Virus record (IMG/VR): IMGVR_UViG_3300029288_000082 | Span: 97,120-161,119 of that record | DNA from: a virus | Lineage: Duplodnaviria > Caudoviricetes | DNA: 64,000 nt | Strand: one strand, 5' to 3' | Shown here: one piece after another, positions 4,673 through 62,930 of the stretch | Layout: each line of letters opens with the position of its first letter | Position numbering within the stretch: the stretch's first letter is position 1 | Program-made: the position numbers and the translations under genes | Notes under the pieces: model-generated | The model's database searches: none | Seen by the model: only the letters and a program-made list of their open reading frames with translations | What the model was told of the DNA's origin: nothing

Positions 4673-4705
4673 CGATGCCTCCTACCAGCGAACACGTGTG
4701 CGCTC

Positions 4706-4918
4706 CTACCTTCGCCTGCGCGCATGCCGCCGCGCGGATGCCGCCTGCTGCTCCGCCTGGGAGCGCCGCGACTCTTCGAGGCGCCCCTTCTGCTCCACGA
4801 ACCGCTTGCGGCGGCTGTATGGCATGCCCATGATGCTGTCGTAGGTGCCACCTTGCAGCTCCATGAGGAAGAACACCTCGCTCTCCTGCGCCGCTAGGGC
4901 GCCGAGGGGAAGAAAAAA
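4706..4918 (-). CDS. -1 frameshift extension of the tail chaperone (G/GT-like; gp51-like peptide)
   Basis: In-frame slippery heptamer T TTT TTC at 4918-4912. The -1 frame reads FLPLGALAAQESEVFFLMELQGGTYDSIMGMPYSRRKRFVEQK and stops at 4706. Confidence 0.75.
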   Translation of the reverse strand, partial: FFLPLGALAAQESEVFFLMELQGGTYDSIMGMPYSRRKRFVEQKGRLEESRRSQAEQQAASARRHARRRR

Positions 4919-5751
4919 CTGGGCTGCCCCAGGTTCAAGTCGTCCCGCCACTCATGCTGACACGACGGACACGCAAAGTCTACTACCGTGTCCACGTGGC
5001 CTTCGTACTGCTCGAAGAGGGCCCGGATCTCGTTGCGGTCCCGCGTGGGGAGCCCCTTCAGGCACGCCATGGCCTCCTTGTGCTTCCGATCGCGCTCGAC
5101 GGGCACGCCGTCGATGGCCTCCACGCGCGTCAGCAGCCCCAGCGTCAGCGTGTCCTCCTTGCGCTTGCCCTTCGCGCTCAGCCACTCCTCGTCCGCCGCG
5201 GTCATGACGTGCCAGCGCACCACGCGCCCGGAGGACAGCGTGTGCTCCCACACCCGCTGCGTCCGATCCTGCATCGGCCGGATCTCGACCTGCGCGAGGT
5301 CCAGCGTGTAGCGCACCTCGTCGCGGCATTCCGGGCTGGGGCACTGCACCTTGACCTCGTACTGGTCGCCCAGTGACACGCGCCGGATGGCCAGGAGGGC
5401 CACCATGCGATCGCTGGCCGTCAGCGCCGCCACCGCTGCGTTGAGCGCCGCCCGATCATCGATGTTGCCAAGCCGGTGCGTGCAGTTCAGGATGATCTGG
5501 TTGAGCCGCTGAAGCACCGGGCCCTTCGCCGTCAGCAGGTCCTCCTCGTACCCCGTCATCTCGCCCACCACCAGCTCGCTGTGCACGCTCCCCTCCCGGT
5601 CCAGGTAGCCGCACGGCAGCTCCACCGTCAGCACGGTGGGGCGGATATCGGACCGATCCCAGTCCTGCTGCACCGCTGCCAGCTTCTCCTTGGTCGGCAC
5701 GATCGGCGCCTCCGGCGCCCCCTGCTCGCCCTTCTGATCCTGATCCGTCAT
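4894..5751 (-). CDS. Tail assembly chaperone / gp26-like hub assembly protein with Cys pairs (CPSPEC, CPSC)
   Basis: VELPCGY...MTGYEEDLL...LLAIRRVSLGDQY pattern; precedes the tape measure; ends in FFFP. Confidence 0.75.
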   Translation of the reverse strand: MTDQDQKGEQGAPEAPIVPTKEKLAAVQQDWDRSDIRPTVLTVELPCGYLDREGSVHSELVVGEMTGYEEDLLTAKGPVLQRLNQIILNCTHRLGNIDDRAALNAAVAALTASDRMVALLAIRRVSLGDQYEVKVQCPSPECRDEVRYTLDLAQVEIRPMQDRTQRVWEHTLSSGRVVRWHVMTAADEEWLSAKGKRKEDTLTLGLLTRVEAIDGVPVERDRKHKEAMACLKGLPTRDRNEIRALFEQYEGHVDTVVDFACPSCQHEWRDDLNLGQPSFFFPSAP

Positions 5752-5942
5752 TGCTCTTGCACCTTTCTATGTGCCCGCTGCGCATCCAGCGACAGCAGCT
5801 CTGCTTCGGCGCGGCGCTCCTGCCGCACCCAGCCGACGATCAACTCGCGCACCACGTCCGAGAGCGACCGCCCCAGGCGATCCGCGCGATCCCGGAACTC
5901 CACCAGCACGTCCTCTTGGATTTCCATATTGAGCCTCGACAT
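5748..5942 (-). CDS. Ribbon-helix-helix (CopG/Arc-like) DNA-binding protein
   Basis: MSRLNMEIQEDVLVEFRDRADRLGRSLSDVVRELI fits the RHH pattern; GGAGG RBS; ATGA overlap with the chaperone start. Confidence 0.75.
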   Translation of the reverse strand: MSRLNMEIQEDVLVEFRDRADRLGRSLSDVVRELIVGWVRQERRAEAELLSLDAQRAHRKVQEQ

Positions 5943-5958
5943 GCTACCTCCTGCGCAC

Positions 5959-6051
5959 AGTCTACGCATGATCTGCGCACGCGGTCAACCATCCGGCCCC
6001 AAAAAAGTGCAGGCATAGGGTTGACAAACGCAATGGAGGCATTATTATAGT
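5959..6051. promoter_or_regulatory. Divergent sigma70-like promoter pair
   Basis: Minus strand: TTGACC-18-TAGACT (5988-5959). Plus strand: TTGACA (6021-6026) followed by TATTAT/TATAGT (6043-6051). Confidence 0.65.
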
Positions 6052-6096
6052 CCCAAGATGCCGGGCGCTAAGCCCAGGCCAACCGAGGAGGATCCA

Positions 6097-6234
6097 ATGA
6101 AGATCGAACGCATCCGACGCCGGGTCATGCAGATCACCTACGACGGCCGCTCCCCGGAGATGGAGGCCCGGGCCAGCGCGCTCGCGCTCGCGCTGGGCGC
6201 GCGCGGCTACACCGTGACGCTGGTGAAAGCGTAG
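6097..6234 (+). CDS. Small hypothetical protein (45 aa; not in the ORF track)
   Basis: GAGGAGG RBS; MKIERIRRRVMQITYDGRSPEMEARASALALALGARGYTVTLVKA*; first gene after the plus-strand promoter. Confidence 0.65.
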   Translation: MKIERIRRRVMQITYDGRSPEMEARASALALALGARGYTVTLVKA

Positions 6235-6311
6235 GGAACTGGACGCGCACACGTGTGCGCATGATCGTGCCCACAACGGTGCCACGCACCGTTCAACCAG
6301 GAGGAGAAGCC

Positions 6312-7100
6312 ATGAACGAGACCGAGACCCCCAAGACGATCGACGGGCTGATCGTGGAGCTGCAGGAGGCCGAGGAGCGCCGCGACGACGCCCTGGCCGA
6401 CTACGGCCGCGTGCTCCAGGAGAAGCTGGCGCTGGAGGCGACCTGCGAGACCCTGCAGGTGCTCGTGGCCTCCGCCGAGGGGGCCGCCACGGGGTACAAG
6501 GCCGCGGTCGCCGACCTCGCGGCCCGGCTCCAGCTGGCCGAGGCCGAGCGCGACGCGCGCGCCCTGGACGAGGAGTGGCGGGCCAAGCGCATCGAGATCC
6601 AGAAGCTCCGCGACAAGTGCGAGCAGATGCGCAAGAACCTGATCGCCGTGGACGCCCGGGCGGACGAGCGGTACGAGGCGCGCGTCGTCGAGATCTGCGC
6701 CGAGCGCGACCGGGCCATCGCCGCCGCCCAGGCCGACGCAGCTGCCCAGATCGCCACCGCGGAGGCCGGCGTCGCGGAGCGCATCGCCACGATCCGGGCC
6801 GAGGCCGCCCAGACCATCACCGAGCGCTGCGCCCAGTCCGATGCCGCCGCGCGGCTGGCCACGGTCGCGCACGGGGAGGCCGACGCCCGGGCCGCCGCCG
6901 CCACGCAGCGGGCCGAGATCGCGGAGCGCAACCTGGCCATGGTCCGCCAGGCCAACGTCCACCGGGTCGATGCCCTTCGGGACGCGGTGGCCCTGACGTT
7001 CGCCTGGGAGCGGCGCGACACGCGAAAGGTCAAGTCGGCGGACGACCTGATGCAGCAGCTCCAGAAGACGCTGTACCAGGCGATCGCCGTGGCGCGGTAG
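6312..7100 (+). CDS. Long coiled-coil protein
   Basis: GGAGGAG RBS before MNETETPK; Ala/Glu/Arg heptad-rich; strong GC3 codon bias. Confidence 0.75.
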   Translation: MNETETPKTIDGLIVELQEAEERRDDALADYGRVLQEKLALEATCETLQVLVASAEGAATGYKAAVADLAARLQLAEAERDARALDEEWRAKRIEIQKLRDKCEQMRKNLIAVDARADERYEARVVEICAERDRAIAAAQADAAAQIATAEAGVAERIATIRAEAAQTITERCAQSDAAARLATVAHGEADARAAAATQRAEIAERNLAMVRQANVHRVDALRDAVALTFAWERRDTRKVKSADDLMQQLQKTLYQAIAVAR

Positions 7101-7171
7101 GTGCGGAGGATCCCCCCTCCCCCTGGGCAGAACCTGCGAGGTCCGGCATGGCCGGGCGAAGGAGAAGAAAG

Positions 7172-7393: not shown

Positions 7394-7396
7394 CCA

Positions 7397-7801: not shown

Positions 7802-7823
7802 CGTCGCACCGTCCTTTCGTTCA

Positions 7824-8567: not shown

Positions 8568-8732
8568 GATCCATTCCTCCAGATCCCTACGGGGATCCCG
8601 TAGGCGAAACCGCGGGCAGCGGCGCGCCGGTGCTCACCGACACGGGCAGCGGGACAATCCCGCTGGTCTGACGTAAGCGCGGGTCCCGCCGACGGCGCCG
8701 ACGTTTTCCCTGCTGCATGTCCACGATACCCT

Positions 8733-9083: not shown

Positions 9084-9085
9084 GC

Positions 9086-10194: not shown

Positions 10195-10195
10195 G

Positions 10196-10505: not shown

Positions 10506-11420
10506 TCACCCTGCTTTCCAGGAGGCGAAGAGCTTCTGGGCCTGCTTCAGCATGGCCTCCAGCGCGTCCACCTCCTCGTCGTGCTGCTTGTTCAGCTCCT
10601 CGCGCTCGCGCTTGTCCTTGGCATCCATCGGCGTCCCAGCCCCGTAGATGCGCGCCCGCAGATGCTGGATCTCCTGCCAGTGCCGCTGCAGCTCGGACAG
10701 CGCAAGCGAGAACCGCGCCCCCTCCCGGCTCTCCTCCATCAGCGCCCGCTTGGGATCGGCCGCCGCCGCCTCTGGGATCGTCACGCGCACGGTCTTCCCC
10801 GCGCTGTGCTTCACCGGGTAGGTCGGCACCCGGCCCGAGTTGCTGAACCACGCCCGCACGCCGTCCAGCAACGCCTGGGCCTTGTCCTCCAGCGCGTGCA
10901 TGGCAGCCTCGTGCTGCTTCCAGTTCTTTTTGGCCTCCTGCAGCGCGACCTCCTTCCACGCATCGCCCAACCCATTCACGATGCTAGCCAGTGCGGCCTG
11001 GGACCCGTGCGACGCTTCTGGCGCTGGCACGCCAGCCAGCGATGCCAGATCCTTGGCGATCCACTTGCCGTCCCGCGCGCTGTCAAGCACCCTTCGAACA
11101 GCCCGGTCGATCTTGAACTTGTCGATGGGCTTGTCAGACGGAAGCTCGTCGATCACGGCATCCGCGAAGTGGCGGCCGCCCTTCCCATCCAGGAACTCCC
11201 GGATGGCCTTGGATGGGATGCCCTGATACTTCTGCACGAACACCCGGAACGCTCCGTTCCACGCCTCATCCGGAGGTACAGATCCAGACGGAGCGTCTGA
11301 TAGTCTGCTCGACATTGTCCCGAAGAACCCCCACGACGTGTTCTCCGTGGGCAACACCTGCCCCTGCCGCTTCCCTACCGCTTCGCAGATCTGCTGCCCC
11401 AGCTGCCGCAACGTTCCCAT
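10506..11420 (-). CDS. Hypothetical, putative internal head protein
   Basis: AAGGAG RBS before MGTLRQLGQQICEA. Confidence 0.7.
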   Translation of the reverse strand: MGTLRQLGQQICEAVGKRQGQVLPTENTSWGFFGTMSSRLSDAPSGSVPPDEAWNGAFRVFVQKYQGIPSKAIREFLDGKGGRHFADAVIDELPSDKPIDKFKIDRAVRRVLDSARDGKWIAKDLASLAGVPAPEASHGSQAALASIVNGLGDAWKEVALQEAKKNWKQHEAAMHALEDKAQALLDGVRAWFSNSGRVPTYPVKHSAGKTVRVTIPEAAAADPKRALMEESREGARFSLALSELQRHWQEIQHLRARIYGAGTPMDAKDKREREELNKQHDEEVDALEAMLKQAQKLFASWKAG

Positions 11421-11461
11421 CAGCTTCTCCTTTTTCTCAGCGAACACGTGTTCGCCATCTA

Positions 11462-18135: not shown

Positions 18136-18233
18136 GGATTGCCTCCTTGTTCGGCTCGGAGAATTTTCTCGCGTGCATCATGACCGGTCCTCAGTCGTCG
18201 AGGATTTCAGGCCACCTCGCTGGCCTTGCTAGA

Positions 18234-18698: not shown

Positions 18699-18870
18699 GC
18701 AGTCCTGCTATCTTTCTGGCGCGCAACGGTGCGCACCGGCGTCGAGGTTTTCAGGCCACCTCGCTGGCATTGCAAACTCAAAAGTTGCACGCGCACACGT
18801 GTGCGCGCCAGCGCTCCCCTCTCCACAGGCGTCACTTCTCCAATGTCCTCTGGAAGCTGTTGCGGATTCA

Positions 18871-19566: not shown

Positions 19567-19646
19567 ATCGTGTTCCTATCGATGCGCACCGCAGCCTTCA
19601 CGCAATGGGCTTAGCGAACACGTGTTCGCTGCTGGGCAACCCTGGG

Positions 19647-20717: not shown

Positions 20718-22790
20718 GCCCCCAGGATAGCACGGGGGCGCGCTGCTGGCGACTCTACTTGAGGGCGGCGCGGGACAGCTCCTCGATATCCCGCAGGTGC
20801 CCGATGATGATCTGGTCGTCCGTCTCGATGGACTGCACGACCGCCGCGTGCGCGTGCGCGTTCACCTCGCGCAGCGCCACCATCAACCGCTCGACCTCGG
20901 CCCGCAGTTGCCCGGCGTCTTCGAACGAGGCGGCTTCAAGGTCACTCTCACTTTTCAGCGCCTCGTCGCGTTCGGCGGTCAGGCGGGCAACCTCGGCCTC
21001 CAGTTCGGCGATGCGCTTCGCCTGACGACTTTCCTGGACCCGCTCCAGACTTTCCTCACGCGCCTTCCGGCTTTCCTCGCCGGCTTGAGACGCGGCTAAC
21101 CTGCCGTATTTCCAGGGCTTCAATCCTCGGCACGGTCGTTGCTCTGCGCTCATCTCGACCTCCATACCGCTTCGGCCGCCGCCGCGTCGTACTGGGCACA
21201 CTCCGCGCACCGGTACCAGCCCGTGCCTGCGCAATTGCGAGCAATGCCCACGGCTTCGACGCGCCCAGCTGGGACGAAGCACGGCTCGCCCTCCTCCCCC
21301 TTCCCCGCGAGGGCGGCGCGGGCCCATCCCGCTGCGTCTTCACACTTGGTTTCGCACTCGATCACGGTTAGCGTTTTTCTCAGCCGCTCGTTCTCGGCCA
21401 GCGCCTCGTCGCGCTCGCGGATCAACTGCGGCACCATCTTACCAATAAACCGTCGGCAATGGTCTCCAGGTGCGGCGCCAAGCATCTTGGCAAGCGCCTG
21501 TATATTCCACTCGCGTTCGACTCGCAGCGCCTCCCCCTTCCATCTATCAAGCCGGTCTACCTCTGCTACCGCCCGCCGTGCCGCGTCCTCGGCGTCCATC
21601 GGACCCTCGGCCCCCACCGCCCCGATCAGGATCTGCGCCGTCGTCCGGAGGCGTTCCCGCAGTTGATCGATCTGCCCCAGCAGGCACGCCTCGCAGGCGT
21701 AGTACGGATCGCCTTCGCCCATCGGCACCCCGTTCACGTGCGGGACGTTGCTGCGCTTGTGCAGCGCGACGAGCATGTGGTCCTTCCCGTGCCGGGCGCA
21801 CTCGTTTGGCGGGGTGATCACCTGGATGAAGTTGATCTCGTCGCTCATGGCATTCCTCCCTCATCCTCAACCAGCCCGCGCTGGCGCAGTTCTTCCCACG
21901 CCGGCTTGCACACGACAGGATCACCGGACCGCGGCCCGCGCGGCACCGGCTGGTGCGCGCAGGTGCTCCCCCGCGCTGGGGCCCACGAGAAGTGGGGGCA
22001 CTTGTTGGGCGCGATCCCCTGCACCAGCGCCATGCAGCCCTCCCCGCTGTGCTCCCGGATCAGCAGATCCTGCTCGCGGCGGAGATCATCGATGCGCCTC
22101 TGTAGCTCGCGCAGGCGCGCCTCGCGCGACGACTCCCATCGGTGCTGGAGGGCCGCGCCCTTCAGCTCCCGTCTCTTCCGCTTCGGGGTCTTCCCCGCGC
22201 GTCCCCGCCGCAGCATCCAATAGCGAACGGCATCGCTCGGATCCCCCCAGTCCTCAAACGCGGCCAACCGGCTGTCCCGTGTCGTGGCACGCCAGCACCG
22301 CCGCACCGCCGCAACGATCTCCGCCTGGTGGTCGGGCCCCTCATCGCCGTCCCCCCAGCGCCGATAGTAGGCGGCCAGGATCTCTGCATCAGTCACTTTG
22401 GCTTCCATGCTTCCTCTTGTTCCTTTGAGCGCACACGTGTTCGCTGGGATCGACGATCTGGCGCTGGGCCTCGCGGGCCTTCCGCGCCAGCTCGGCCCGG
22501 GCATCATCCAGGGCGCGGCACTTGCCGCAGGCCCCGCAAGCGCGCCCGTCGTCCCGCACATCAGCCCTCCTGCTCGAACCGATCCGCCTGTTCCCGGAGC
22601 GCGCCCGCGATCGTGCGCCGCTCCGACGTGTTCAGCGCCGCCGGGGCCACCGCGCGGAGCACCTGGATCGCATGCACGGCCATGCGCGCGGGAGCTTCGC
22701 GCGCCCCCGGCTCCGCCAGGATCTGCGCGACATCCTCGGGCCCCACCTCCACCTCCACCTCGTGGTCGATCGTCACCCACCGGCGCACCT

Positions 22791-23530: not shown

Positions 23531-24820
23531 TCACTTCTCCACTGCGAGGGCGACGCTGGCGATGCTGATCGCCTTCTTTTTTCCCATCGCGTAGTTCCAG
23601 TCGGGATCATCGCATGGCGAATCCAGCATTGCCAGGCCCTTGCTCGGCGCGTATCTGTCCACCACTTTCTGATCCATGTCCGTCCAGGTTGCGACAATAT
23701 GGTTTAGTGCAGCTGTCAGCCGCTCGACCTTTTCCCGCGTTGTGCTGGCCTTCCCGGCGGTGATGCTGAGATTGTCCTCCAACTCGACCACCCGAGCCTT
23801 CATCCGCTCGACCTCGGCACGGAGCGAGGCACGTTCCTCGTCCATCCGATCCACCTCGTCTGCGGACATGATGCATTCGCACCTGATTGGACTCATTTTT
23901 TCGCTCATCTCTCACTCCTTCCCCGCAAAGTCGGCAACACCTTCCGCTGCTATAATTCGCAGCACACCGTACTCGCCCAACCCCTCGATGCGCTGCACGA
24001 TGCATGCGCCACACAGCATCCCCGCGCCAGGTTCCTTGCCCGCGGGCCGGATGCGATCCCACAGCACATCGGGCAGGTCGATGTCCACCCGATAGCGATG
24101 CCCGCACTCCTGACATGTGCAGCTCACGGTCTATCCTTCCCCGCGAGGGCGGCTCGGACCAGTCGCCCGATGTGCTCGTCGCTGTACCGGCCGTCGTTGA
24201 TCTTGGCGGAAAGATCCCCAAGTACCTCGCTCACCGTGCCACGCAGCACCACGTCCAGATCCTCTTTCAGCCGTTCGAGGAACTGCTCGGGGCCATCGTC
24301 GCTCGACAGCAGATAGTCGATGCGCCGGACGAACACGTGTGCGCAGCGAAGGCACGCCACGCCCTCCCTGAACCGCGCGAGGACCTCCGCCGGATAGTGG
24401 CGCCCCTTGTGATCCCCGTACCGGTTCACCTCCGTCGAGTCGTTCTCCGCGATCACCTGCTCGATCTCGTCGGCGATCAGGTAGTAAGGCGTGTCGCCAA
24501 AGTGGCCCCCGCTCATCGGCGCACCTCCGTCCCGTACCGCACGAGGTAGTCCGCCTCGTTGTCCGCGCGCCCCTGCGGGTACGTCGAGGATCCGTGGTTG
24601 TCGAAGATCCGGTCCTTGCGGTTGATCCGCCCGCGCAGCTCGTACCCGCTCCGGAACGTGTGATGCCAGTTCTGGGCCGCCTCGGGGTCGGCGTGCGTGT
24701 ACTCGCCGCTGCGCTGATCCATCCACTGCAGCAGTTCCTTGCGACTCAGGAATTTTTTGACGACCGTCTGCGGGTTGCGCAGGTCCGTTGATTTCTCAAC
24801 TCCGTACAGCATCTCTCCTC

Positions 24821-26189: not shown

Positions 26190-26191
26190 TA

Positions 26192-32295: not shown

Positions 32296-32328
32296 TCCCT
32301 GCCTCCCTTCGCGCACACGTGTGCGCTC

Positions 32329-33721: not shown

Positions 33722-34144
33722 TCACTTTTTGGGGGCGGCCACGAGGCGCTCGTTCACCACCACGCGCATGCCACGTCGCGCCAGGATCTGCCGCAGCTGG
33801 GGCTCGTGCTTGCGGCAGCACCCCAGGGAGCCCCCGCTGGCGCCGTGGAACGTGACGCCGAACACGGCCGGTTGGCCGCAGATGAAGCAGTAGGTGGCCA
33901 GGTGTGGCCGGGGCCCGCGGTAGCGCGGGAAGGCCCGGCCCGCCGCCGGCCCCCCGCAGTCCGCCACGGCGCAGGCGCAGGGGCGGCCCGCTGCCTGCTC
34001 CCGGGCCTCCCAGTAGTGGGTGCACCAGGCGCACACGGCGCTCAGCCCCGTCTCGATCTCGCGCTGGGCCAGGGCCTCCGTGAGGGCGCCCAGGCCGGTG
34101 CCCGCGTCGATCACGGGGCGCACACGTGTTCGCTCCTCGGTCAT
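33722..34144 (-). CDS. Cys-rich (Zn-binding) hypothetical protein
   Basis: CAWC, CAC...CGGP and YCFICG motifs; GGAGG RBS. Confidence 0.65.
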   Translation of the reverse strand: MTEERTRVRPVIDAGTGLGALTEALAQREIETGLSAVCAWCTHYWEAREQAAGRPCACAVADCGGPAAGRAFPRYRGPRPHLATYCFICGQPAVFGVTFHGASGGSLGCCRKHEPQLRQILARRGMRVVVNERLVAAPKK

Positions 34145-34989: not shown

Positions 34990-35028
34990 GGTCCTACTCC
35001 TTCTTGCTCGCGCGCACACGTGTGCGCC

Positions 35029-35844: not shown

Positions 35845-35887
35845 CGCGTCCTCCAGCGGCGAACACGTGTGCGCCGATCAATCTCAG

Positions 35888-43124: not shown

Positions 43125-43203
43125 TCATGATTCTACCGCTTCGCGGGATGTTTGTCAACAGAAAAATGCGCCCCCGCGCGTCGGCGAACACGTGTGCGCT
43201 GGG

Positions 43204-44950
43204 TCATGGCTCCTCCTCTCCCGCCGCCTTCTTAGCGTGGCACCCCCGGAAGTGGTTGCAGTTCGCGCACACGACGCTTCCCGGGAACCCGAGTGGTACG
43301 AAGTGGTCGCAGATGGGACTCTCACCCACCGAGTAGGCGCATAATGGATCGCAGACCGCGTCCTGCGCTGTGGGCCAGCCCATGGAAGAGGAGGCATTCA
43401 CCGCCTCCTGCGTCCCTGGAAGATCGGGCGCGTCCGGAACATCCTTCACCGGCGGTAAACCCAGCGCGGCGTGGTCCAAGGCCTCCATGCTCACCGGGCC
43501 GACCGCGTCCTCCAACGGGCCGCCCTTGTAACTCGCAGACTGGTGGTACAACACCAACGCGCCCGTCTCGTCCACCTCCAAGGTGATGAGGTGGTGGTAG
43601 CCGTCCGGCGCCGGGTACCGCACCGCCACGCGATTGCCGCGCCAGAATCCCTCGATCTCGATCACGTGCCCGTCCCCGCTCCAGTCGATGCGCATCTAGC
43701 CCCCCTGCTTCGCGCGCCCCGCGGCATTGCGCCGCACCTGGTCGAGCACGTCGCAAAGCGCCACGCCCCTGGCACGCCCCGCGATCCGCCACAGCGTGCC
43801 GATCCCCACGGGCGCATCCGCATCATCCGGGGACATCCTCATCCGGTCCTCCAGCGCCCGCAGGATGTCGGCGGCCGCCCGGATGCCGTTGTCCGCATAG
43901 CGGTTCGGCCACCGACTGGACGACTTCTTCACCCCCTGCATGAACGCCAGCGCCCACACCATCTGCTCCATGGCCGCGGGCAACTTGATCGCAGGATCAT
44001 CACCCTCCGAGGCTGCCGCCGGCGGCCCGGCATCCACTGGCGCCCCCTCCTCGGCCGTCGGATCCGCGGCCAGCATCGCCTCTTCCGCCTCCAGCGCGGC
44101 CACCCCCGCCCGCAGGCACGCCCGGCAGAAGTGCTCGTTCGACAGGAGCGGGAACACTATCACCGCCTCCGCCTCTTGCCCGCAGGCGTCGCAGGTGTAG
44201 CGCGGCAGGCCGCCGCCAAGTGCGGCCCCGCGTGCATCAGCAGCTCCCCCGGCACCCGCACCTCGTACCCCGCCACCGTCCCCGTCATCCGCGCGTAGTT
44301 CTCTTCCATGACCGTCCTCCTGCGTTACGCGGCTCCCGCCGCGCAGCCTCCCGTCAACCCCGCTACAGTACCACGCCCCTCCGCATTTGTCAACAGTAGA
44401 AAGGAAAAAAGCGCACACGTGTGCGCCGCCCCGATCAGCCGTCCGCGCCCACCACCTCCCCGGGGGGAGCCGCCTCCCGCCGGAACACCGCGTAGAGCTG
44501 GCCGCCATCGGCTGTGGTACCCGCGTCCTCCAGGTGGTAGTCCGCGCCCGCCTCCAGCACCCGCTCGATCTCCCAGCGCCGGAACAACCCGGGGACCCGC
44601 ATGAACTCGTCCTCGTCGTCGTCCTCCTCCTCCTCTGGATCCAGATCGGGCTCCCCTCCCTCCCCTGGCCGGGCCTGCGGCAACGGCCCCGCCCTCCCAT
44701 CCACCAACCGCAGGAGGGCGACGATCGCCGGGTGCGGCCGCACCCCCGGGGCCGCCTTCAGCTTCGCAATGATCGCCGCTAGCGTAGACTCGCCGCGCTC
44801 CTCCTGCCACCACACCTGTTCGAGCCCCGCGGCGACCTGCCGGACCGTCGCGTCGTCGGTGCCCCGCACGGCGAACACGCCGCCCAGAACCAGCACCACC
44901 TCCTCGAACAACTCCGCGCGCGCATCCCTCTTCCCGTCATCCCGTCGCAT
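43204..44950 (-). other. Accessory hypothetical genes (43204-43695, about 43696-44309, 44435-44950)
   Basis: ORFs downstream of the promoter-like sites at 44393 and 45071. Confidence 0.55.
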
Positions 44951-46187: not shown

Positions 46188-46294
46188 GTGATCCTCCTTG
46201 GTGCGGGCGCCCCCGGGGGGCGCACACGTGTTCGCTTGGGGGGCTCCTTCCGGCCCCCACCATGGCACAAGCGGATCGCGTTTGTCAACGAGAA

Positions 46295-47959: not shown

Positions 47960-49660
47960 CGGGCACCTCCTCCGCGCACACGTGTTCGCATCCACGGCCT
48001 GCATTTTACCGCTCTCCGTGCGCTTTGTCAACGATGACCGCCTCCGCGTGCGCCGCCAGCTCCGCCGCCTGCGCGTCCAGCTCCGCCTCGTACCGCGCCG
48101 CGCAGGCCGGGCAGATGCCGTCGGTCACCTCGACCACGCGGCGGTCCAGGGGCGCCACGGGCATCCCCCAGGTGGTCCCCGACCGGACCCGGCCACACCA
48201 GGCGCAGCGGTGGATCATCAAGTACCTCCTGCTAAGCAGGCGGTTTGTGAGTGAACCATGCAGAACACGGCTCCCCACGATAGGCTGCTTGACACACAGC
48301 CCATCCGCTCCGGTCGTGCCGAAGCGGTACGGAAGGCGGCAAGTCCAAATGCCATAGAGGTCTTGGAGACCGTTGGCAGCTTGATCGCCTTCATGTCACA
48401 ATACCAAATCCATTCGCCAAAATCAACCTTACTGGCGATTCCCCTGTCGGCCAAACCCGACAGTCCACTCACCTTCATGGCGCCCCCCGGGTGGCCGTCC
48501 AGACCGTCGGGCACCAGATCGGGTCGGTGACGACGGCCTTGGTTCTCTCGCGCCACGCCTTGAACGCGGCCAGCACCGGCTCGTGCCGGCACCCCGCACA
48601 AGCCTCCCGGCCGCAGAACGCCGACGTGCAGCAGCTCGGGTACACCCGCGTGCGATCCTCCCGCGGCAGCGAACACGTGTGCGCGGTCATGCTCAGTCCT
48701 CCTCTCACGAGCACACCGCAGCATCCAGCGGCGCATCCGACGCGTCGGTGTAGAGACACACAGTCGCACCAGCCATCGACCACATGATCGCGGCGTGGAT
48801 CGGCGCGGCAGACGATATCATCTCGGCAATCAGCGGGAGATCTTCGGACGCCGCCGCGAAATCTGCCGTGGCGAACGATCGGTGTTTGCCTGGTTCATCA
48901 GGAAAACGCGTCCATTCCGGCTCGCCGCACAACTCGGTCAATTTGGATAGAAGTTCGTCGCGTGTCATGCTCCCCCCGTGATCCGGCGGGCCAGCGCACG
49001 CAGGCGCGCCGCCTGCTCAGTCGCAGGCCGCATCCCGATCTCGTCGTTGCGGTCCGCGACGATCGCCAGCGCGAACCGGATGTCCTCGATCTCGTCGTCC
49101 GTCAGGGTGATCTCATGCGTGTCCATCTCACTCCTCCTCTCGCTGCGTCCTCAGCAGCACCGAGCCGTCAAGTGGGACTCACCCCGCGGGGGAAGAGGGG
49201 CCCCGGCTCCCGGGGTGCCTCGACGACTCGGGGCCGGTGAGGACCGGCCCGGAACCTAGCAGCCGCACACCCAGTCCAGGTCGCCAGCCGGGCCGTGCTC
49301 GCCGCAGCGAGGGCACACCACGGACAGCGCCGCGCGGAACTCGTCAGCGATCCGCTCCCGCGCGACCGCCTCGTACTCGGTCCGCTCGGGGATGAACGCG
49401 ACACCAGGCCCCTCCGTTACGTCGGCCTCCCACTCCTCGTGCGCCCACGTGCGGATCGATTCGGCCAGTTCGCCGACCAGCTCGTCCACGCTCGCGACCT
49501 CGAACGGCCCGCAGTCCCCGAACCTCTCGTCGTTGTTGTACAGCAGCATTTTCCCTCTCTCCTTCTGCGGCGTCCCTGCCGCGTTGCCATGCTCACACAA
49601 TAACCGCTTGGGTTGCGTTTGTCAACCACCCTGGCGTCCCCCCTGGTCGATTGTTTCTAA

Positions 49661-53030: not shown

Positions 53031-54674
53031 TTAGTCGGTCAGGCCGGCCAGCCGCTGCATCTCCTCGTAGGAGTTGCCGAAGGGATCCTTGTCCCCTCGG
53101 GTGCTGCTAGACCCGCGCCGTCCCTCGGACAGTTCCCGCTGGTCGCCGTGGCCGCGCTGCAGCCGCCGGCGCATCTCCCGCAGGTCCTCGTCCAACATGT
53201 CCGTCCGTCCGTACCGCGTCACGACCGCATCAACCTCGGCCTTGGAGGAGACGTCCTCCATCAGGCCCAACACCTCTCTACCGTTCGCCAATTGTGCTAC
53301 CTTCGCCGCCTTGTAGGCGTCCAGGGCCTCGGCCCGCAGAGCGTCCACCCGGGCTTCAAACCGGGTGCGCTCCTCGGCCAAGGTCTGCTCCGCCTGCTCG
53401 GCCTGGGCCTGCGCCTCCTCCAGGGAGGACAGCATGCCACGGCTCAACTCAGCTGCCTTGCCCAACCGCGCGTCCAACGATGCTACCTTTTCCTGCAGGG
53501 ACGACATCTCGCCCCGCAGCGTCGTGTTCTCTTCCAGGAGCCGCTGCTCTGCCGCCGACGGCCCCGGCGCCGGTAGCCGCTCATGCAGGAGCGCCAGCCG
53601 CTGCTCGACGTCCTGCTCCGACGTGAACTGCACGCCCTCCAGCAGGGCGCGGGCGGCCTCCGCCGTCTCCCCCTGCCCCAGCTGCCGCTCCACCAGCAGC
53701 TGCAGCCGAACCTGCTGCGCCTCGGCCACCGCCGCGTCCCGCGCCGCCTCGGCCTCGGTGCGCGCCAGCGTCTCGGCCTTCATGGCATCCCGCACCGCCC
53801 GCTCGTCGGGCTGGGTACGATAAGCGCCCACCATCTCCGCGATCTGCGCCAGGGTGGCCCGGGCCGCGCCCACCGATGGGTCGGCCGCGTACTCCTCGCG
53901 CAGCTGCTGCCCCAGGTCCTCCCGCGCCTCCAGCAGCGCCGCCGCCAGGCGTTCCTCGAACGCCTCCGTCATCTCCGTGCGAACACGTGTGCGCTCGGCC
54001 TCCACCGCCGCGTCCACGCCGGCCACGACCTTCTCCTTGGCCTTGGCCACGGCGTCCGCCGCCGCCTGCTCCTGGAGCTGCTGCGCCACCTCGGGGAACT
54101 CCGCCAGGAACTGCTCGGCCAGCGTGGCCGGATCCGCCTCCTCCACCGACTCCATGGTGATGGTGGGCACGGCCGTGCGCACCGCCGGGTCCGCCACGAA
54201 GTCGTAGGTCCGCAGCACGAAGTCGTCCTGGACCTCCTCGCCCTCCACCTTGCCAGACGAAGGGCGCGTGCTGCCGAAGCCCCGGCTGGACACCGGCACC
54301 GGGATCCGCGCCTCCACCAGCGCCCGCAGGTCGCGGCCCGTCGTGGTGTTCAGTATCTCCGCCTCGCCCATCACCCGCCCGTCCGCCTCCAGCCACAGAT
54401 CCGTGATCACGTGGCTCACCAGGGACAGCGAAGATTTCCCGCTCTGCGGATGGTCGAGCTGTCCGAGCACGCGCCGGTTCTCCAGGTCTTCCTTCAGCCG
54501 CTTGATCTCCCGCTCCATCAGCTTGGTGCTGTAGATTCGGCCGTTCAACGTCGGCGTATCGCAGCGCCCGAACTCTCCGCGCGCCACCAGCTTGCCGGAC
54601 CCAGGGGCGCCACGTGCCTCGGTCAACTCGAACACCGATGGCGCCGTGGTCTCGATCAGCAACTGCTTCGACAT
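53031..54674 (-). CDS. Prohead protease (gp21-like) fused to a coiled-coil scaffold
   Basis: NGRIY, LGQLDHP, VSSRGFGS and YDFVADP catalytic motifs, then a long Ala/Glu coiled coil; RBS before MSKQLLIE. Confidence 0.9.
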   Translation of the reverse strand: MSKQLLIETTAPSVFELTEARGAPGSGKLVARGEFGRCDTPTLNGRIYSTKLMEREIKRLKEDLENRRVLGQLDHPQSGKSSLSLVSHVITDLWLEADGRVMGEAEILNTTTGRDLRALVEARIPVPVSSRGFGSTRPSSGKVEGEEVQDDFVLRTYDFVADPAVRTAVPTITMESVEEADPATLAEQFLAEFPEVAQQLQEQAAADAVAKAKEKVVAGVDAAVEAERTRVRTEMTEAFEERLAAALLEAREDLGQQLREEYAADPSVGAARATLAQIAEMVGAYRTQPDERAVRDAMKAETLARTEAEAARDAAVAEAQQVRLQLLVERQLGQGETAEAARALLEGVQFTSEQDVEQRLALLHERLPAPGPSAAEQRLLEENTTLRGEMSSLQEKVASLDARLGKAAELSRGMLSSLEEAQAQAEQAEQTLAEERTRFEARVDALRAEALDAYKAAKVAQLANGREVLGLMEDVSSKAEVDAVVTRYGRTDMLDEDLREMRRRLQRGHGDQRELSEGRRGSSSTRGDKDPFGNSYEEMQRLAGLTD

Positions 54675-55868: not shown

Positions 55869-56881
55869 GTGCTCGCCTCCGCGCCTTTCTGGGCCCGCCC
55901 TACCAAGTAGGCGGCCACAATCTTCATGACCCTTGCTCGCCCGGCCCACTGATCGTGGGCCTCCGCCATGCGCTCGATATCCTCCGTGGTCCACAACTGA
56001 TCAACCTTGGCGAGCACCCCATACAGGGTCTGCGCTTCAACGAGCAACGACTCACGGATGGCACCATTGGTTCTGTCTTCATCATCGTCACGCCCACCAT
56101 CAAACACCAAATCACGAATCTCGTCAACAATCCCCCCGCACACGCCAGCGAGGAGACCAACAGACTCACGCAACTCCCCATCGAACTCGGGCAACCGGGA
56201 ACGCGGCAGCTTGGCGTAGGCCGTATGGGGCACCGCAGCCTCCAGCTCGCGGATGCTACCCCACATCTTGGTGCGGATGCGCTCCTGGTTCGCCTCGTAT
56301 AGCGCCCACCAGTGCTGATCGTCCGTCGCATCCATCGCCGCTTCTGCCAACCGCAGCGCTGCACCCAGCGTGTACGGCTCGCCCGGCCGCAGCAATCCTG
56401 CCACCGCGCGCACACGTGTGCGCTCCGGCGCCGTGCCCTGCATCATGCCCGCCACCAGCGCGCGCAGCTCCTCCCGCACCAACCCGGGCAGTTGCGCCTC
56501 CTCGAAGACCGGGATGGCGCTGGGCCGCACGTCCACCTGATCACCGTGCGCGTGCGCCTCGTGCAGCGCGCCGTCCGGCGTCTGAAACAGGCACCGAGGC
56601 AACATGGTCTTGGGATCGACCTGCGTGGCGATCACATCCACGCCCACGCCGACCGCCGCCCGGATGGACGCCTCCGCGCGCTCCAGCATCTCCTCTAGGC
56701 TGCCCACCGTCCACTGCGCCAGGTCCTCCGCGCGCACAAAGCGCCCCCCGCGCGACTTCTTCTTGCCGACGGGGACGCCGATCGGCCCCTCACCCTTCCC
56801 CGTAGCGAGCCCGCGCCCCGCCCCACCGGACCGCCGCTTCTTCCCGGGATCGGCACACGTCTCGATCATGGTCTCCGCCAT
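55865..56881 (-). CDS. Hypothetical head-module protein
   Basis: GAGG RBS directly after the portal; ATGA coupling to the next gene. Confidence 0.7.
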   Translation of the reverse strand: MAETMIETCADPGKKRRSGGAGRGLATGKGEGPIGVPVGKKKSRGGRFVRAEDLAQWTVGSLEEMLERAEASIRAAVGVGVDVIATQVDPKTMLPRCLFQTPDGALHEAHAHGDQVDVRPSAIPVFEEAQLPGLVREELRALVAGMMQGTAPERTRVRAVAGLLRPGEPYTLGAALRLAEAAMDATDDQHWWALYEANQERIRTKMWGSIRELEAAVPHTAYAKLPRSRLPEFDGELRESVGLLAGVCGGIVDEIRDLVFDGGRDDDEDRTNGAIRESLLVEAQTLYGVLAKVDQLWTTEDIERMAEAHDQWAGRARVMKIVAAYLVGRAQKGAEAST

Positions 56882-59627: not shown

Positions 59628-59671
59628 GAGCCCTCCACCAGCAGCAGCGAACACGTGTGCGCTTGTCGCCC

Positions 59672-62600
59672 TCAGTCATCGTCGCCCCCGAAGTAGATCG
59701 GGGCCAGCAGCTCATCGCTGCGCGTCGCCCGCGTTGCCTGCCGCACTTCGCTCACGTCCACCTGCTCCAGGGGCACCAGCGGCGTCACCCATTGGTGCTC
59801 GTGCGCCACGATCTCCCCCATGGGTGTATCAGCATCCGCTCCCCACGGCAAGCGAGCCGCCCGCTGAGATAACCCGAGGACCACACCAGCAACGCTATCA
59901 GCGCAGTCCTTGGTACTGTGACGGGTGTGGTCCACCTTGCCCTTGATCCGGTCGTACTCCAGGGCGCGCAGCTCGCCCAGCAGGATCGGGTAATTGTAGT
60001 ACTCGATGCGCCGCTCGTAGATGGCGCTCTTGAGCGCGTTGTAGCCATCCATCGAGGTATCCAGGGAGAGGATCTCAGCGTGCACGCCGTGCCGCCGCAG
60101 TTGCTGGTGCATCTCCACGTACATGTAGGTGTCCGTGGACACGCCCGCAATCGGGAAGCCATGAGCCTGCAACGCGTACACGAGGTTGCGCAGGTCCGGC
60201 AGGTAGATCTGCTCACCAGGGGGCGGACGAATTGCCAGCATGGCCTCGATGATGAAGTGGGGAGCCACGTCTTGGTAGCGGTTGCCGTCGCCGTCGCGCC
60301 GCACCACTTCAACGTACCGATCGATCCTGCCCATGCAAAATCCCGTGCTATCCCCAGAGATCGACACGTCGATGTGGACCCAGCGGGGGGCACGCGGCGC
60401 CTCCCGTGGAACCCACGCCTCCTCAGTGAAGCCGCCTGGCAGCCGACGTTCCACCGGTCTGCACAGGTACTGCCAGTCCCATCCGCCCGGGCTGCCCGAG
60501 ATCCAGGTCTCGGCGCTGAACGGATGGCGGCGATCCTTCTGCACGCAAGAATCGATGGCCTCCACCCGCTGGAAGAATGCGCTGATGGCCTGTGTGCTGA
60601 TGCCAGCGATGTCGCGCAGCGAATCCTCCAGGTTGCCCTCGAAATCATCGCGGTACTCAGCAGGCACCTCAATCACCCACGCCTCGTGCTCCTCCAGATA
60701 CTCATCGTCCAGCGCATCCACCTCCTCTGGCGACAGGATGCGGCTGCGCAAGCTACTGTGGGCGCACAGCACATGGAACACCTCCCCGCAGAAGAACTCT
60801 TCTGGGCGAGCTGACCACTGCGAGTGCTCCAGCACGTACACGTCCGGATCATCCGCCGCCTCCCGGATCTTGCGCTCAGTGAACGAGTCCACCGTAGCAG
60901 CAGACGAGGCCAGCACCACCATCCCGGGGAGGTCGCCCGCCACCCGCTGGAAGCGCGACTTGATGCGGCGCACCAACGACCGGTACACCTTCTCCACGAT
61001 ATCGAAATGGGCCGCCGTCAGCTGCTTGCCCAGTGTCTGCTGGATTTGCTGGGCGTTGCGTTTGGGAGGGAAGTTGGTATTGTGCACCACACATCCGTCA
61101 GCCACGAACGTGCGGCAGGTAGTCTCGATGCTGTAGGTCTGCTCCGGGGGAAGCAAACAAACGCTCGTCACCCGATCAAGGTGGAACTCGGGGGGTAGGT
61201 CGGCAACGCGCAAGCACTCGGGACGGCATCCCCCAAGGGCGCGACCGTCCGCATGGTCCGGACCCGCACCCGCTTCTGTCGCACTCCCTCCATGAACGCC
61301 TCCGTCACGAAGGGGCCGGTCCACACGCTCGGCAGCGGCTTCGAGTTCAGAGACAGCAGGAAAGGCATGCACCGCTCCTGGGCCCACGCCCACAGCGCCA
61401 GCACCCGCGCACGATCCCGCGCCTTGTAAAAGCTCGTCTGCGACTTCGCCTCGACCAACACTTGCACCCCGTCGTCTCGGGTCACCAGAAAATCCGGAAC
61501 CGTGAGGCGCCGCTGCCCCGCAAGCGTGTACGGGATAAACTCCAGCTGATCCTCGCCCACGACACTGCGCACCCCCGGCGTCGCACACAGGTGCAGGGCC
61601 AGGGATTGCTCGCGTGACGACCGGCATGGCACCGTCCCGCCACATGGCGACGACACATGGAACCGGTACGTCCGCGTCCGATTCTGGATCGACCGCGCAT
61701 TCCCCTCCGAAATCCGCTGCCGATCCGCATCCGTGTGCGGGTGCCCCGGCCTTCCCTTGCGCACCGCACTCATCCTTGCGCGGGCCTCTGCCGAGTGATG
61801 TTGTCCCTTCCGCGGCATCGTCTACCCTCCAGACCGTTTCGTCCCCGACCTGCACCGCAGCCGTCGGCACGTAGATCAGGGTGTCACCGCGCCGCACCAA
61901 CACCGGGTGGTCTGGAGAAAGTTCCACGGCGCGAGGCGAACACGTGTTCGCAGCTTCGAGGCGCACCAAGGGTTGCACCGAGGACGCGCGCATCCGGAAC
62001 GGCACCCAGTGCCGCTGCCCAGTTGTGTGATCCAGTGCTTCCACCAGTAATCCATCGCGCGCATCCTCTCCAGCGTCCCAAAGATCTCCGACCGACCGCA
62101 CCTCAAAAGTGGCACCGTTTTGCACAGTTAGCAAGCATTTTTTACCTACGCACTCATCACAGATAGCGGCCACGACGGCCTGCCCGATGGCCCGCTCCGC
62201 ACCATACGAACCCACCGTCACCGAGATGTTGTTGGGAAACAGAGTGTAGTCGGTGGAAAACTTGGGCGGGAACCGCGCCATGAAGTAGGGCGACAGCTTG
62301 ATCTTGTCGTCCACCGCGGTCTTGAGCACCGCCCGGCAGATCGGCAGCGACTTGCTGACCAGCATCAGCACCATCTGCGTGCCAGCCCCCACGCCGAACG
62401 TGGTCTGCGGGTTCTTCAGGCAGCTCAACTCGTACAGCAGTCGGCAAAAAATTACACTGGCAACAAACGTCTTTCCATATCCGAGGCTGCCTGCCAGTAA
62501 TACCTCCCGGTACGGAGCAGAGAACAGGTTGATCAGTACATCCCGCAACTTTGGATACAGCGTGGTCATGGAGTCGCCAAGGTAGAAGGGGTCCTCTAGA

Positions 62601-62815
62601 AACTGGGCCATCGGCACCGGGATCGTGTGGTACAGCCCCTCCTCTAACTCCCGGCCCATGGCGGCCGCCACTTCTAAATCCCCCTCGACCAACAGCGCAT
62701 CGAACAGCTGCTTGGCCTCCGGGGGCAACCCCGCCAGCGAATCCTTCACCGCCCGCGTGTCGTCGCCCACCGTGCGCTCGCTGCGCCGACGCCCGTCCTT
62801 GCCCACCCGGATCAC
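59672..62815 (-). CDS. Terminase large subunit, containing an intein
   Basis: Walker A GSLGYGKT; Walker B AAICDE; coupling motif LASS; nuclease VHIDVS..GD and KVDH...TKDCAD. Confidence 0.93.
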   Translation of the reverse strand: MIRVGKDGRRRSERTVGDDTRAVKDSLAGLPPEAKQLFDALLVEGDLEVAAAMGRELEEGLYHTIPVPMAQFLEDPFYLGDSMTTLYPKLRDVLINLFSAPYREVLLAGSLGYGKTFVASVIFCRLLYELSCLKNPQTTFGVGAGTQMVLMLVSKSLPICRAVLKTAVDDKIKLSPYFMARFPPKFSTDYTLFPNNISVTVGSYGAERAIGQAVVAAICDECVGKKCLLTVQNGATFEVRSVGDLWDAGEDARDGLLVEALDHTTGQRHWVPFRMRASSVQPLVRLEAANTCSPRAVELSPDHPVLVRRGDTLIYVPTAAVQVGDETVWRVDDAAEGTTSLGRGPRKDECGAQGKAGAPAHGCGSAADFGGECAVDPESDADVPVPCVVAMWRDGAMPVVTRAIPGPAPVCDAGGAQCRGRGSAGVYPVHACGAAAPHGSGFSGDPRRRGASVGRGEVADELLQGAGSCAGAGAVGVGPGAVHAFPAVSELEAAAERVDRPLRDGGVHGGSATEAGAGPDHADGRALGGCRPECLRVADLPPEFHLDRVTSVCLLPPEQTYSIETTCRTFVADGCVVHNTNFPPKRNAQQIQQTLGKQLTAAHFDIVEKVYRSLVRRIKSRFQRVAGDLPGMVVLASSAATVDSFTERKIREAADDPDVYVLEHSQWSARPEEFFCGEVFHVLCAHSSLRSRILSPEEVDALDDEYLEEHEAWVIEVPAEYRDDFEGNLEDSLRDIAGISTQAISAFFQRVEAIDSCVQKDRRHPFSAETWISGSPGGWDWQYLCRPVERRLPGGFTEEAWVPREAPRAPRWVHIDVSISGDSTGFCMGRIDRYVEVVRRDGDGNRYQDVAPHFIIEAMLAIRPPPGEQIYLPDLRNLVYALQAHGFPIAGVSTDTYMYVEMHQQLRRHGVHAEILSLDTSMDGYNALKSAIYERRIEYYNYPILLGELRALEYDRIKGKVDHTRHSTKDCADSVAGVVLGLSQRAARLPWGADADTPMGEIVAHEHQWVTPLVPLEQVDVSEVRQATRATRSDELLAPIYFGGDDD
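61079..62152 (-). mobile_element. Intein in TerL (358 aa), inserted directly after Walker B DE
   Basis: Begins CVGKKC; block B LSPDHPVL; ends TYSIE...FVADGCVVHN|T. Confidence 0.9.
61168..61818 (-). CDS. NUMOD3 plus TnsA-like PD-(D/E)XK endonuclease, nested out of frame in the TerL intein
   Basis: GGAGG-7nt-ATG; KGQHHSAEARARMS..RKG (NUMOD3); RSSRE, IPY, PDFLV and LVEAK motifs. Confidence 0.85.
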   Translation of the reverse strand: MPRKGQHHSAEARARMSAVRKGRPGHPHTDADRQRISEGNARSIQNRTRTYRFHVSSPCGGTVPCRSSREQSLALHLCATPGVRSVVGEDQLEFIPYTLAGQRRLTVPDFLVTRDDGVQVLVEAKSQTSFYKARDRARVLALWAWAQERCMPFLLSLNSKPLPSVWTGPFVTEAFMEGVRQKRVRVRTMRTVAPLGDAVPSACALPTYPPSSTLIG

Positions 62816-62930
62816 GGCGCCCCCCCAGCACCAAGGGGGGAACCCAGCGCACACGTGTTCGCTCTAAAGACCGAACGATCGCCGGTCGTCTCCTGCGGAT
62901 TTTTCGCAGTTTTCTGTGAATCGTTCGGCA

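Follow-up and report, generated by a model that had tools for sequence, protein, structure and literature searches.

A 16-bp palindrome, GCGMACACGTGTKCGC, is repeated throughout a 64,000-nucleotide stretch of DNA from a tailed virus (IMG/VR record IMGVR_UViG_3300029288_000082; the whole stretch is referred to here as the window), and our analysis indicates that the array is very probably a real, phage-specific and selected set of predicted protein-binding sites on double-stranded DNA (dsDNA), core to a T4-like phage family. The window corresponds to bases 97120-161119 of a contig of 161,119 bp and 66.4% GC (C2), which belongs to a 3.57-Mb assembly of 205 contigs (G000) whose remainder has a GC content of 60.6%. 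Twenty exact matches are present in the window, all at coordinates listed in a preliminary description of this DNA, and the 21st copy reported there, at 24329, differs from the motif by one base (ACG... for GCG...); allowing mismatches adds no other. Dinucleotide-preserving shuffles (n = 100) yielded no exact match and a mean of 0.27 matches at up to two mismatches, confirming that the array is real and that close to none of its copies is expected by chance. Over the entire contig the count reaches 39 exact copies, or 42 when variants in the outer base or the centre are included. The preliminary description had named a host-wide repeat among the results that would speak against a phage system; the motif is restricted to the phage contig, the 12-mer core being absent from the other 204 contigs of the assembly (3.4 Mb). 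Alignment of the 50-nt flanks of all copies showed that the 16-mer is sharply bounded, with almost no information beyond it. A scan of 185,579 species genomes provided no clue to the host, as among the matches listed (at least 120) the 80 displayed were single hits each, and a literature search for the motif sequence turned up only the SOS box of Staphylococcus aureus.

The contig derives from a T4-like myovirus whose products include capsid, portal and protease proteins of the gp23, gp20 and gp21 types, respectively (the portal with an intein), as well as a tail sheath, gp25 and baseplate proteins; nearly all of its ~220 genes are on the minus strand, and no repeat was found at the contig ends. 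A megablast search for close cultured relatives was negative, the highest capsid identity being 37%. In IMG/VR, about 25 contigs contain the exact motif and are syntenic with C2 at 50-75% protein identity. Retrieval by capsid sequence brought in further relatives (57-78% capsid identity) that seemed to be motif-less and turned out to carry the same arms around another centre. The family element can be written as RCGAAC-N4-GTTCGY, and each of six relatives, whose major capsid proteins are 57-78% identical and whose GC contents range from 51 to 64%, has 9-33 copies compared to about 0.15 expected (these counts were made on whole fetched records). The centres are ACGT, CYRG or T..A according to lineage, with relatives showing the cores CCCGGG, CCTGGG, CTCAAG and CTCCAG. 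C2 itself (161 kb, arms GCGMAC) has 42 copies, mainly with ACGT; G001 (90 kb) has 18, with ACGT or TCGT; G006 (169 kb) has 33, with CTGG, CCAG or CCGG; and G009 (58 kb) has nine, with CCGG. Among the complete genomes, G011 (195 kb) has 29-30 copies centred on TCCA or TGGA, while TTGA or TCAA predominates in the 22 copies of G012 (176 kb) and the 26 of G013 (157 kb). Positions 2-3, 5-6, 11-12 and 14-15 are invariant across the family, positions 7 and 10 are symmetric and lineage-specific (A/T, C/G or T/A), the central step is mostly pyrimidine-purine, and positions 1 and 16 are G/A and C/T; the variability at positions 4 and 13 is peculiar to the C2 lineage. The recognised sequence has changed in concert across the sites.

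Individual sites have also been held in place. Six of them occur at the same location in every clade for which the region is available. Five of the six precede genes, namely the homologues of a 1320-amino acid (aa) open reading frame (ORF), the gene at 18871-19566, the gp25-like gene, the opening gene of the replication module and a 140-aa gene, and the sixth falls around residue 152 of the head-module gene at 55865-56881. The last of these (56408..56423) lies at the same codon positions in C2, G006, G009, G011, G012 and G013; the head-module protein is only 35-46% identical between lineages, yet the RT(R/Q)VR peptide and the motif are both retained, and the third codon positions track the centre of each lineage (ACA-CGT, ACC-CAG, ACC-CGG and ACT-CAA in the aligned C2, G006, G009 and G013 genes). 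Similarly, the copy at 61936..61951, inside the inserted, intein-like part of the 1060-aa large-terminase ORF, is retained in G006 and G009 while the encoded residues differ (NTCS, NPGS and NLGS). Because the synonymous positions of orthologous sites within coding sequences (CDSs) follow the motif, selection acts on the DNA, and the check proposed in the preliminary description, conservation of in-CDS copies at synonymous positions, thus came out in favour of its claim. The peptides that it had read from these copies were largely recovered: ERTRVR (three times), ANTCS and AHVF are encoded in the window, whereas AHTCS occurs only at C2 79987, outside it. The copy inside the prohead protease/scaffold gene (53979..53994, ERTRVR) is lineage-specific, relatives encoding E(R/K/Q/S)RVR at this point without the motif.

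The symmetry of the element bears directly on the way in which it is read, and here two other explanations have to be weighed. Positions 4 and 13 had been said to vary independently, and the four possible pairs are indeed nearly equal in number over the 42 C2 copies (A..G 11, A..T 11, C..T 10 and C..G 10); with such assortment, half of the copies (21 of 42) would have a mismatch, an A.G or C.U clash, in the middle of a stem. This weighs heavily on the idea that the palindrome works as an RNA or single-strand hairpin with a 6-bp stem and a 4-nt loop, that is, as a terminator, a processing site or an mRNA-stabilising element before ribosome-binding sites. Such a role would suit the many copies that follow a stop codon by 2-15 nt and precede a start by 11-23 nt, the perfectly complementary arms of the relatives, which are extended by weakly complementary flanks, the T-rich tracts following two copies, and the presence of a KH-domain protein among the core genes. 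However, the stem sequence shows no covariation across deep divergence, positions 7 and 10 remain symmetric and complementary although they would be loop bases, and the closing positions 1 and 16 are A..C about as frequently as G..T family-wide (24 and 28 copies, respectively). Neither does the surrounding sequence look like that of a terminator: T-runs are not enriched after the sites in any genome, for which reason an intrinsic terminator was rejected, and ordinary terminator hairpins of other sequence are present, for example after the capsid gene. The asymmetric centres show no consistent orientation bias relative to transcription (34 and 33 coding-strand orientations when G006, G012 and G013 are pooled). 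Independent half-sites, the lack of orientation bias and the absence of T-runs together point to a paired protein reading dsDNA rather than to an RNA hairpin, which we regard as highly improbable. The centres of the two arms (CG-n-AC and GT-n-CG) are 10 bp, or one helical turn, apart, and a two-fold symmetric protein with recognition elements at that distance would fit all the symmetry data; the choice between A and C (T or G opposite) may be tolerable for a major-groove contact to an amino/keto group. The earlier proposal of a phage-specific, dimeric reader of dsDNA is consequently supported by the independent half-sites, the symmetry and the confinement of the motif to the phage contig.

A second explanation is that the copies are LexA-type boxes of the host, by which the phage would recruit or soak up host LexA, tying its expression to DNA damage or derepressing the SOS response. 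CGAAC-N4-GTTCG is a Gram-positive-type SOS box whose invariant and variable positions match this layout, and the inner 14 nt of the A/T form are one base away from the S. aureus umuC box, CGAACACGTGTTCT (PMC11442139); conserved pentamers, a 4-bp spacer, variable positions and a size of 14-16 bp are all common to the Gram-positive operator and the phage element (PMC11442139). LexA operators, in contrast, serve a regulon of the host and number some 10-30 sites that are close to promoters and vary in their centres, while the C2 family has 20-40 near-identical sites per phage. Their centres are near-uniform within a genome, fixed per lineage, and change in concert at orthologous sites, none of which LexA needs, and about half of the C2 half-sites read GCAC (CGCAC) instead of GAAC; the copies of the relatives all fit the consensus, as do the A/T-form copies of C2. 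In the assembly, GAAC-N4-GTTC was found neither upstream of lexA (C88) nor upstream of recA (C103), and outside the phage contig it stays at chance level (49 copies in 3.4 Mb). Of 24 relatives of the binned organism, just four gave a LexA domain match (E <= 1e-5), in three cases within open frames of 380-640 aa, and a 15-bp version of the element with a 3-bp spacer, described below, would not suit LexA spacing. The host assignment is itself unsure, since the bin, at 3.57 Mb, is about twice the size of a same-genus relative (1.8 Mb) and may be mixed; the GC content of the phage contig is higher than that of the rest by 6 points. Altogether, we consider the LexA explanation improbable. In the same context, sampled relatives of the binned organism, from the same genus to the same class, measure 1.1-3.0 Mb, and no CRISPR-like links were detected between C2 and the rest of the bin, the matches being a 77-nt stretch (possibly tRNA-like) and a 28-nt match to a second contig.

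The copies are distributed unevenly with respect to genes. Twenty-three of 41 are strictly intergenic, compared to 12% of positions (p = 2e-11), and several further 'in-CDS' copies fall at uncertain gene starts. The usual layout consists of a stop codon, 2-15 nt, the site, 11-23 nt containing a ribosome-binding site, and a start codon. It is exemplified by the copy at 4688..4703, an intergenic site 2 nt past a stop codon and 15 nt before the GTG of the 1320-aa ORF, whose orthologue is located 11-15 nt before the homologous gene in G006, G009, G011, G012 and G013. Copies had been reported before the large-terminase, portal and tape measure genes, and all three placements were confirmed: one lies about 31 nt upstream of the large-terminase ORF start (62847..62862; this 1060-aa ORF matches large terminase weakly, phrog_2, E = 2.6e-6), another is intergenic, 9 nt past the stop of the terminase ORF and 19 nt before the portal ATG (59647..59662), and the third is the 4688 copy. 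The label 'tape measure' for the 1320-aa ORF found no support, as it has no family hit. As for the intein that had been assigned to the terminase, the one detected by Pfam is in the portal; the copy at 61936 lies in an intein-like insert of the terminase ORF.

An early sigma70-type promoter, GTTGACAAAC-N-TAnnnT, is present in about 31 copies on the contig, all on the minus strand (examples in the window are at 25789, 27484, 33711, 43158, 44393, 48031 and 49625), while the T4 late promoter, TATAAATA, is all but missing from the family, no genome having more than one copy per strand. Nine of the 42 sites lie within 25 nt of an early promoter, six of them preceding the -35 box by 7-25 nt and three following the -10 box by 1-24 nt, with no fixed arrangement. 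Four such placements had been described and all are correct: the site at 43184..43199 follows a stop codon by 4 nt and precedes the -35 box of an early sigma70-type promoter by 25 nt; that at 44411..44426 follows a stop codon by 8 nt and precedes a -35 box by 17 nt, with a T-rich tract between; that at 46220..46235 comes 24 nt after a -10 box and 32 nt ahead of an ATG; and that at 47974..47989 comes 13 nt after the -10 box belonging to the promoter at 48031, with an ATG 14 nt further on. The density of sites is higher in promoter-rich accessory regions (five sites at 43-49 kb of the window) than in the structural modules (one per 5-9 kb). In addition, the spacing is more even than random, with coefficients of variation (CVs) of the gaps between 0.56 and 0.84 against a random value of about 0.97 (p from 0.0004 to 0.25 per genome). 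For C2 alone p is 0.03-0.04, and 0.04 against a null that places the sites at gene junctions; the combined p of about 2e-6 is weakened by the fact that the genomes share orthologous sites and are not independent.

Several known systems resemble the array in part. Its closest known counterpart, by analogy, is the 17-bp dyad TGTTCGG-N3-CCGAACA, repeated 34 times in Cluster O mycobacteriophages (Corndog and relatives), for which a dimeric-protein site was proposed (PMC4351075). Both arrays have more than 30 dispersed copies with invariant inverted arms and a short variable centre without orientation bias, both mix short intergenic gaps, gene 5' ends and gene interiors, both share the half-site CGAACA, and in both the positions are mostly common to relatives and copies are absent from the host, a likeness that for C2 rests on a bin of uncertain host assignment. 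The Cluster O arms, however, are arranged in the opposite way around a 3-bp spacer, and their bearers, siphoviruses of some 70 kb, closely resemble each other, whereas the C2 element spans a deeply diverged T4-like family and comes with lineage-specific centres and a conserved candidate binder, discussed below. PeSL cassettes of the T4-type phages RB49 and phi1, around 50 repeats that combine early promoters with terminator hairpins stopping spill-over into late genes (PMC2839356), are likewise intergenic repeats of T4-type genomes that pair strong sigma70-type early promoters with a palindromic element, which insulates transcription units and marks shuffling points. Their stem-loops are nonetheless variable G/C hairpins, act as RNA terminators and are found almost only in accessory regions, whereas C2 has a fixed 16-mer that is also present in core structural modules and within genes, does not maintain a hairpin (half of the copies have a mismatched stem), lacks a T-run and adjoins a promoter in only nine of 42 copies.

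The preliminary description had compared the array to stoperators and to parS. Stoperators of Cluster A phages (L5 gp71 type) are asymmetric 13-mers bound in one orientation only by a two-domain monomer, the immunity repressor of these temperate phages, which once bound stops elongating RNA polymerase (PMC9283540). The placement part of this comparison stands: a single short stoperator site is likewise repeated over 20 times, chiefly in small intergenic gaps across early and structural genes (PMC9283540). Asymmetry, monomer binding and orientation dependence, on the other hand, do not carry over to the C2 sites, which are palindromic, orientation-free and found in a T4-like phage without sign of lysogeny. 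The parS analogy fared worse. Chromosomal parS is also a 16-bp palindrome and has the CACGTG core seen in the C2 lineage, but that core is not conserved in the relatives, the conserved part of the family element being CGAAC/GTTCG; since it is lineage-specific, the parS reading fails and the resemblance is accidental. The C2 arms differ as well, and parS sites are few and clustered whereas the C2 sites are dispersed and spaced more evenly than random. Moreover, parS needs a ParB with a parS-binding helix-turn-helix (HTH) domain, and a search for a partition-type ParB in C2 recovered only a fusion of ParB_N with an N6/N4 DNA methylase, outside the window (C2 29087-30547, L222:9087-10547; phrog_498, E = 9e-115). 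This fusion, present in most relatives, belongs to a type frequent among phage methylases and does not represent a partition protein.

The binder is probably encoded by the phage. We defined a core set of 67 genes common to C2 and at least three of the four large relatives, and ran family searches (Pfam and PHROGs) on about 50 of their proteins. The only recognisable sequence-specific DNA binder found among the core genes is a 64-aa ribbon-helix-helix (RHH) protein of the Arc/ParG type, encoded on the minus strand at 5748..5942. It matches phrog_6506 ('Arc-like repressor', E = 4.5e-6), its homologues match PF01402 and PF07878, and profile searches of the PDB return Arc and ParG with the G-R-S turn aligned (a G-x-S/T turn starting helix B). 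The AlphaFold2 (AF2) model (pLDDT 87.5) comprises a strand region at the N-terminus followed by a short and then a long helix, and its top Foldseek matches are ParG, Arc (Arc-operator), CopG and MatP, with PDB 3VEA and 4D8J among the fold hits; the predicted fold thus matches proteins that bind palindromic operators. The gene is present in all clades, always just upstream of the T4_baseplate gene, and co-occurs with the motif in every family member examined, an association that is not independent of shared ancestry. A sigma70-type promoter of its own (TTGACC-N17-TAGACT, read from the sequence at 5943..6010 on the minus strand, with an equivalent in relatives) implies that the protein is probably made early. 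In Escherichia coli, the RHH protein MatP, through a helical (coiled-coil) extension, organises a chromosome macrodomain from dispersed palindromes, the matS sites. The two systems have in common an RHH fold with a helical extension and a short palindrome scattered over a large DNA region; MatP/matS is chromosomal, however, there is no sequence relation beyond the RHH fold, and for C2 binding by the RHH protein is only predicted.

We therefore put the RHH protein forward as the best, though tentative, candidate for the binder of the 16-mer, fully aware that several observations weigh against it. Nothing links the protein to the motif directly, and its promoter contains no full site. In some relatives this promoter instead carries a different palindrome over the -10 box (in clade C: G011, around 10540-10570, G012 and G013; for example TTGAGTA-GAATT-TACTCAA), which may be an autoregulatory operator of the RHH gene, distinct from the genome-wide motif. 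The residues predicted to contact bases (R, N and E/D) are constant despite the lineage-specific centre, and a comparison of strand residues with the motif centre was uninformative because the variation follows clade only. Another binder could also be hidden among the many unannotated core proteins. Beyond the family, homologues of the RHH protein were found neither in cultured phages nor in five phages with the 15-bp version of the element.

Three other binders had been suggested together with the RHH protein, which alone among the four is family-wide. The multi-HTH protein (27744-28496) and the alpha-CTD protein (30210-31016) have no homologue in any relative, and the putative winged HTH ('wHTH', 25786-26250) has no Pfam HTH hit and a partial match in one relative only; all three were rejected. 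The second of these, a 268-aa protein on the minus strand, ends in an RNA polymerase alpha C-terminal domain (PF03118, E = 2.5e-16) and may be a transcription take-over factor. A 101-aa core protein (C2 39118-39423; L222:19118-19423) was discarded as well, as its model is all-helical, without a match to a DNA-binding fold or a PDB hit. It is the product of the first replication-module gene, which always has the palindrome 62-96 nt upstream, and possesses a conserved C-terminal N-D-(L/V)-G-F tail that might serve in clamp binding. For the 140-aa core protein, whose gene likewise has a conserved site upstream, neither a Pfam or PHROG hit nor, by eye, a recognisable DNA-binding motif was seen, and Pfam or PHROGs found no other DNA binder in about 40 further core proteins.

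What the array does is less certain. In the explanation that we consider best, the 16-mers would be docking sites on dsDNA for a protein of two-fold symmetry (a simple dimer, or two dimers together) that reads the base beside the centre (positions 7 and 10) symmetrically and differently in each lineage, the central pyrimidine-purine step being flexible. The bound protein would mark gene and operon junctions in a genome transcribed almost wholly from one strand, and would act there as a roadblock or insulator against read-through, a protein-dependent counterpart of the PeSL terminator stem-loops and of stoperators. Taken as a whole, docking sites, a symmetric binder encoded by the phage and the marking of junctions, this explanation seems to us about evenly poised between right and wrong; as for function, the roadblock or insulator is the reading that we favour, at somewhat less than even confidence, with an architectural lattice next. 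The roadblock sits uneasily with the conserved site in the middle of the late head operon and with the even spacing of the copies (CV 0.56-0.84 compared to ~0.97), which would fit an architectural role at least equally well; in addition, the authors of the Cluster O study thought a transcriptional role of their repeats unlikely (PMC4351075). In an architectural lattice, protein-bound sites would organise the phage DNA by bridging it, condensing it or anchoring it for replication or packaging, without acting on transcription. The intergenic bias would then merely reflect the cost of a fixed 16-mer inside genes. The more even than random spacing of most genomes, the retention of in-gene sites where long operons leave no gaps, the variable geometry relative to promoters and the lack of orientation bias all agree with such a role, and the long C-terminal helix of the RHH model could mediate higher-order assembly, MatP being among its fold hits. 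Conversely, a density 2-3 times higher in promoter-rich accessory regions than in structural modules and the nine sites abutting promoters weigh against it, there is no evidence for bridging, and the spacing statistic is modest for C2 alone. We hold the lattice to be possible but unlikely. Still less likelihood, indeed very little, attaches to the 16-mers being recombination linkers, short homology patches for shuffling modules between co-infecting relatives. The accessory regions in which relatives differ are rich in copies, one copy lies within a 120-bp repeat resembling the end of an insertion sequence (IS) element, and recombination between repeats has been documented for PeSLs (PMC2839356) and inferred for Cluster O (PMC4351075). 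But the flanks are not conserved, six sites are fixed at the same places in conserved modules family-wide, and strict conservation of 16 bp together with symmetric lineage changes needs a sequence-specific reader, so that recombination would probably be a side effect and not the selected function.

We note one further reading, admittedly a long shot, in which the array and an early-made binder would form a timer coupled to replication in a family that lacks the T4-type late promoter motif and has its genes all on one strand. Early in infection, occupied sites would keep transcription begun at the ~30 early promoters from running on into the structural operons; later, hundreds of genome copies with about 40 sites each would titrate the binder, present in a fixed amount, and the late genes would then be reached by read-through. 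Compaction of the DNA could be a further effect of this lattice. If true, a T4-like phage would here be linking its late expression to replication in a new manner, and Cluster O-type repeats would gain a function.

Dispersed dyad repeats of this kind are known in phages from Cluster O, so far without explanation. New here are the existence of the array as a core, deeply conserved feature of an uncultured T4-like branch with 51-66% GC, the retention of individual sites since the divergence of the lineages, and the concerted shift of the recognised sequence over 20-40 sites per genome. New, too, is a 15-bp version with the same arms, GCGAAC-GNC-GTTCGC, in unrelated phages and proviruses of 34-60 kb (loci L267-L346; records G016-G020), which have 7-17 copies each, spread along the genome; in a tblastn comparison no protein was consistently shared between these phages and C2. 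Together, these observations suggest a widespread, so far uncharacterised layer of phage genome control or organisation, for which the conserved RHH gene offers a concrete candidate protein for binding tests.

The remaining copies in the window, like those given above listed without a strand, follow similar patterns. Five more are intergenic: 11440..11455, 6 nt past a stop codon and 19 nt before the ATG of 10506-11420 (also in G009); 19614..19629, 17 nt past a stop codon and 47 nt before the gene at 18871-19566, with an orthologue in six of six relatives tested; 32311..32326, 2 nt past a stop codon and 14 nt before the ATG of 32054-32296; 35012..35027, 1 nt past a stop codon and 22 nt before an ATG; and 35859..35874, 13 nt past a stop codon and 14 nt before an ATG. 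The copy at 6245..6260 occupies the divergent region upstream of the RHH gene, between the plus-strand genes 6097-6234 and 6312-7100. That at 22429..22444 falls within ORF 21845-22561 if the gene call is taken as it stands, or else 20 nt ahead of an alternative ATG, and that at 34118..34133 is at the extreme 5' end of the gene at 33722-34144 (ERTRVR), or just upstream of an alternative start. The one-mismatch copy, 24329..24344, is inside the CDS 24124-24516 and encodes AHVF, and 48669..48684 lies in a stretch of uncertain coding status. Finally, the copy at 18791..18806 sits in a 172-nt gap, inside a repeat of about 120 bp shared with the 3' end of a TnpB-like ORF (C2 13687-14892).

The two copies of this repeat, at window 18702-18838 and, outside the window, at C2 13681-13797, are 73% identical, the repeat containing a copy of the palindrome; the former, between tail genes, may be a solo IS end. 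TnpB (IS605 OrfB/Cas12f-like) is encoded by five genes on C2, including one at window 26247-27419 on the minus strand, and the relatives carry TnpB too. A different repeat, GCCAGCGAGGTGGCCTGAAA(A/T)CCTCGACG, occurs twice within window 18150-18800, upstream of the sheath gene and of the gene preceding it. Just downstream of the capsid gene, a 528-aa protein (49661-51247, minus strand) unites regions of Mom-like, GNAT and TnsA-like nuclease type; it may be a DNA-modifying enzyme, and clades A and B both conserve it.

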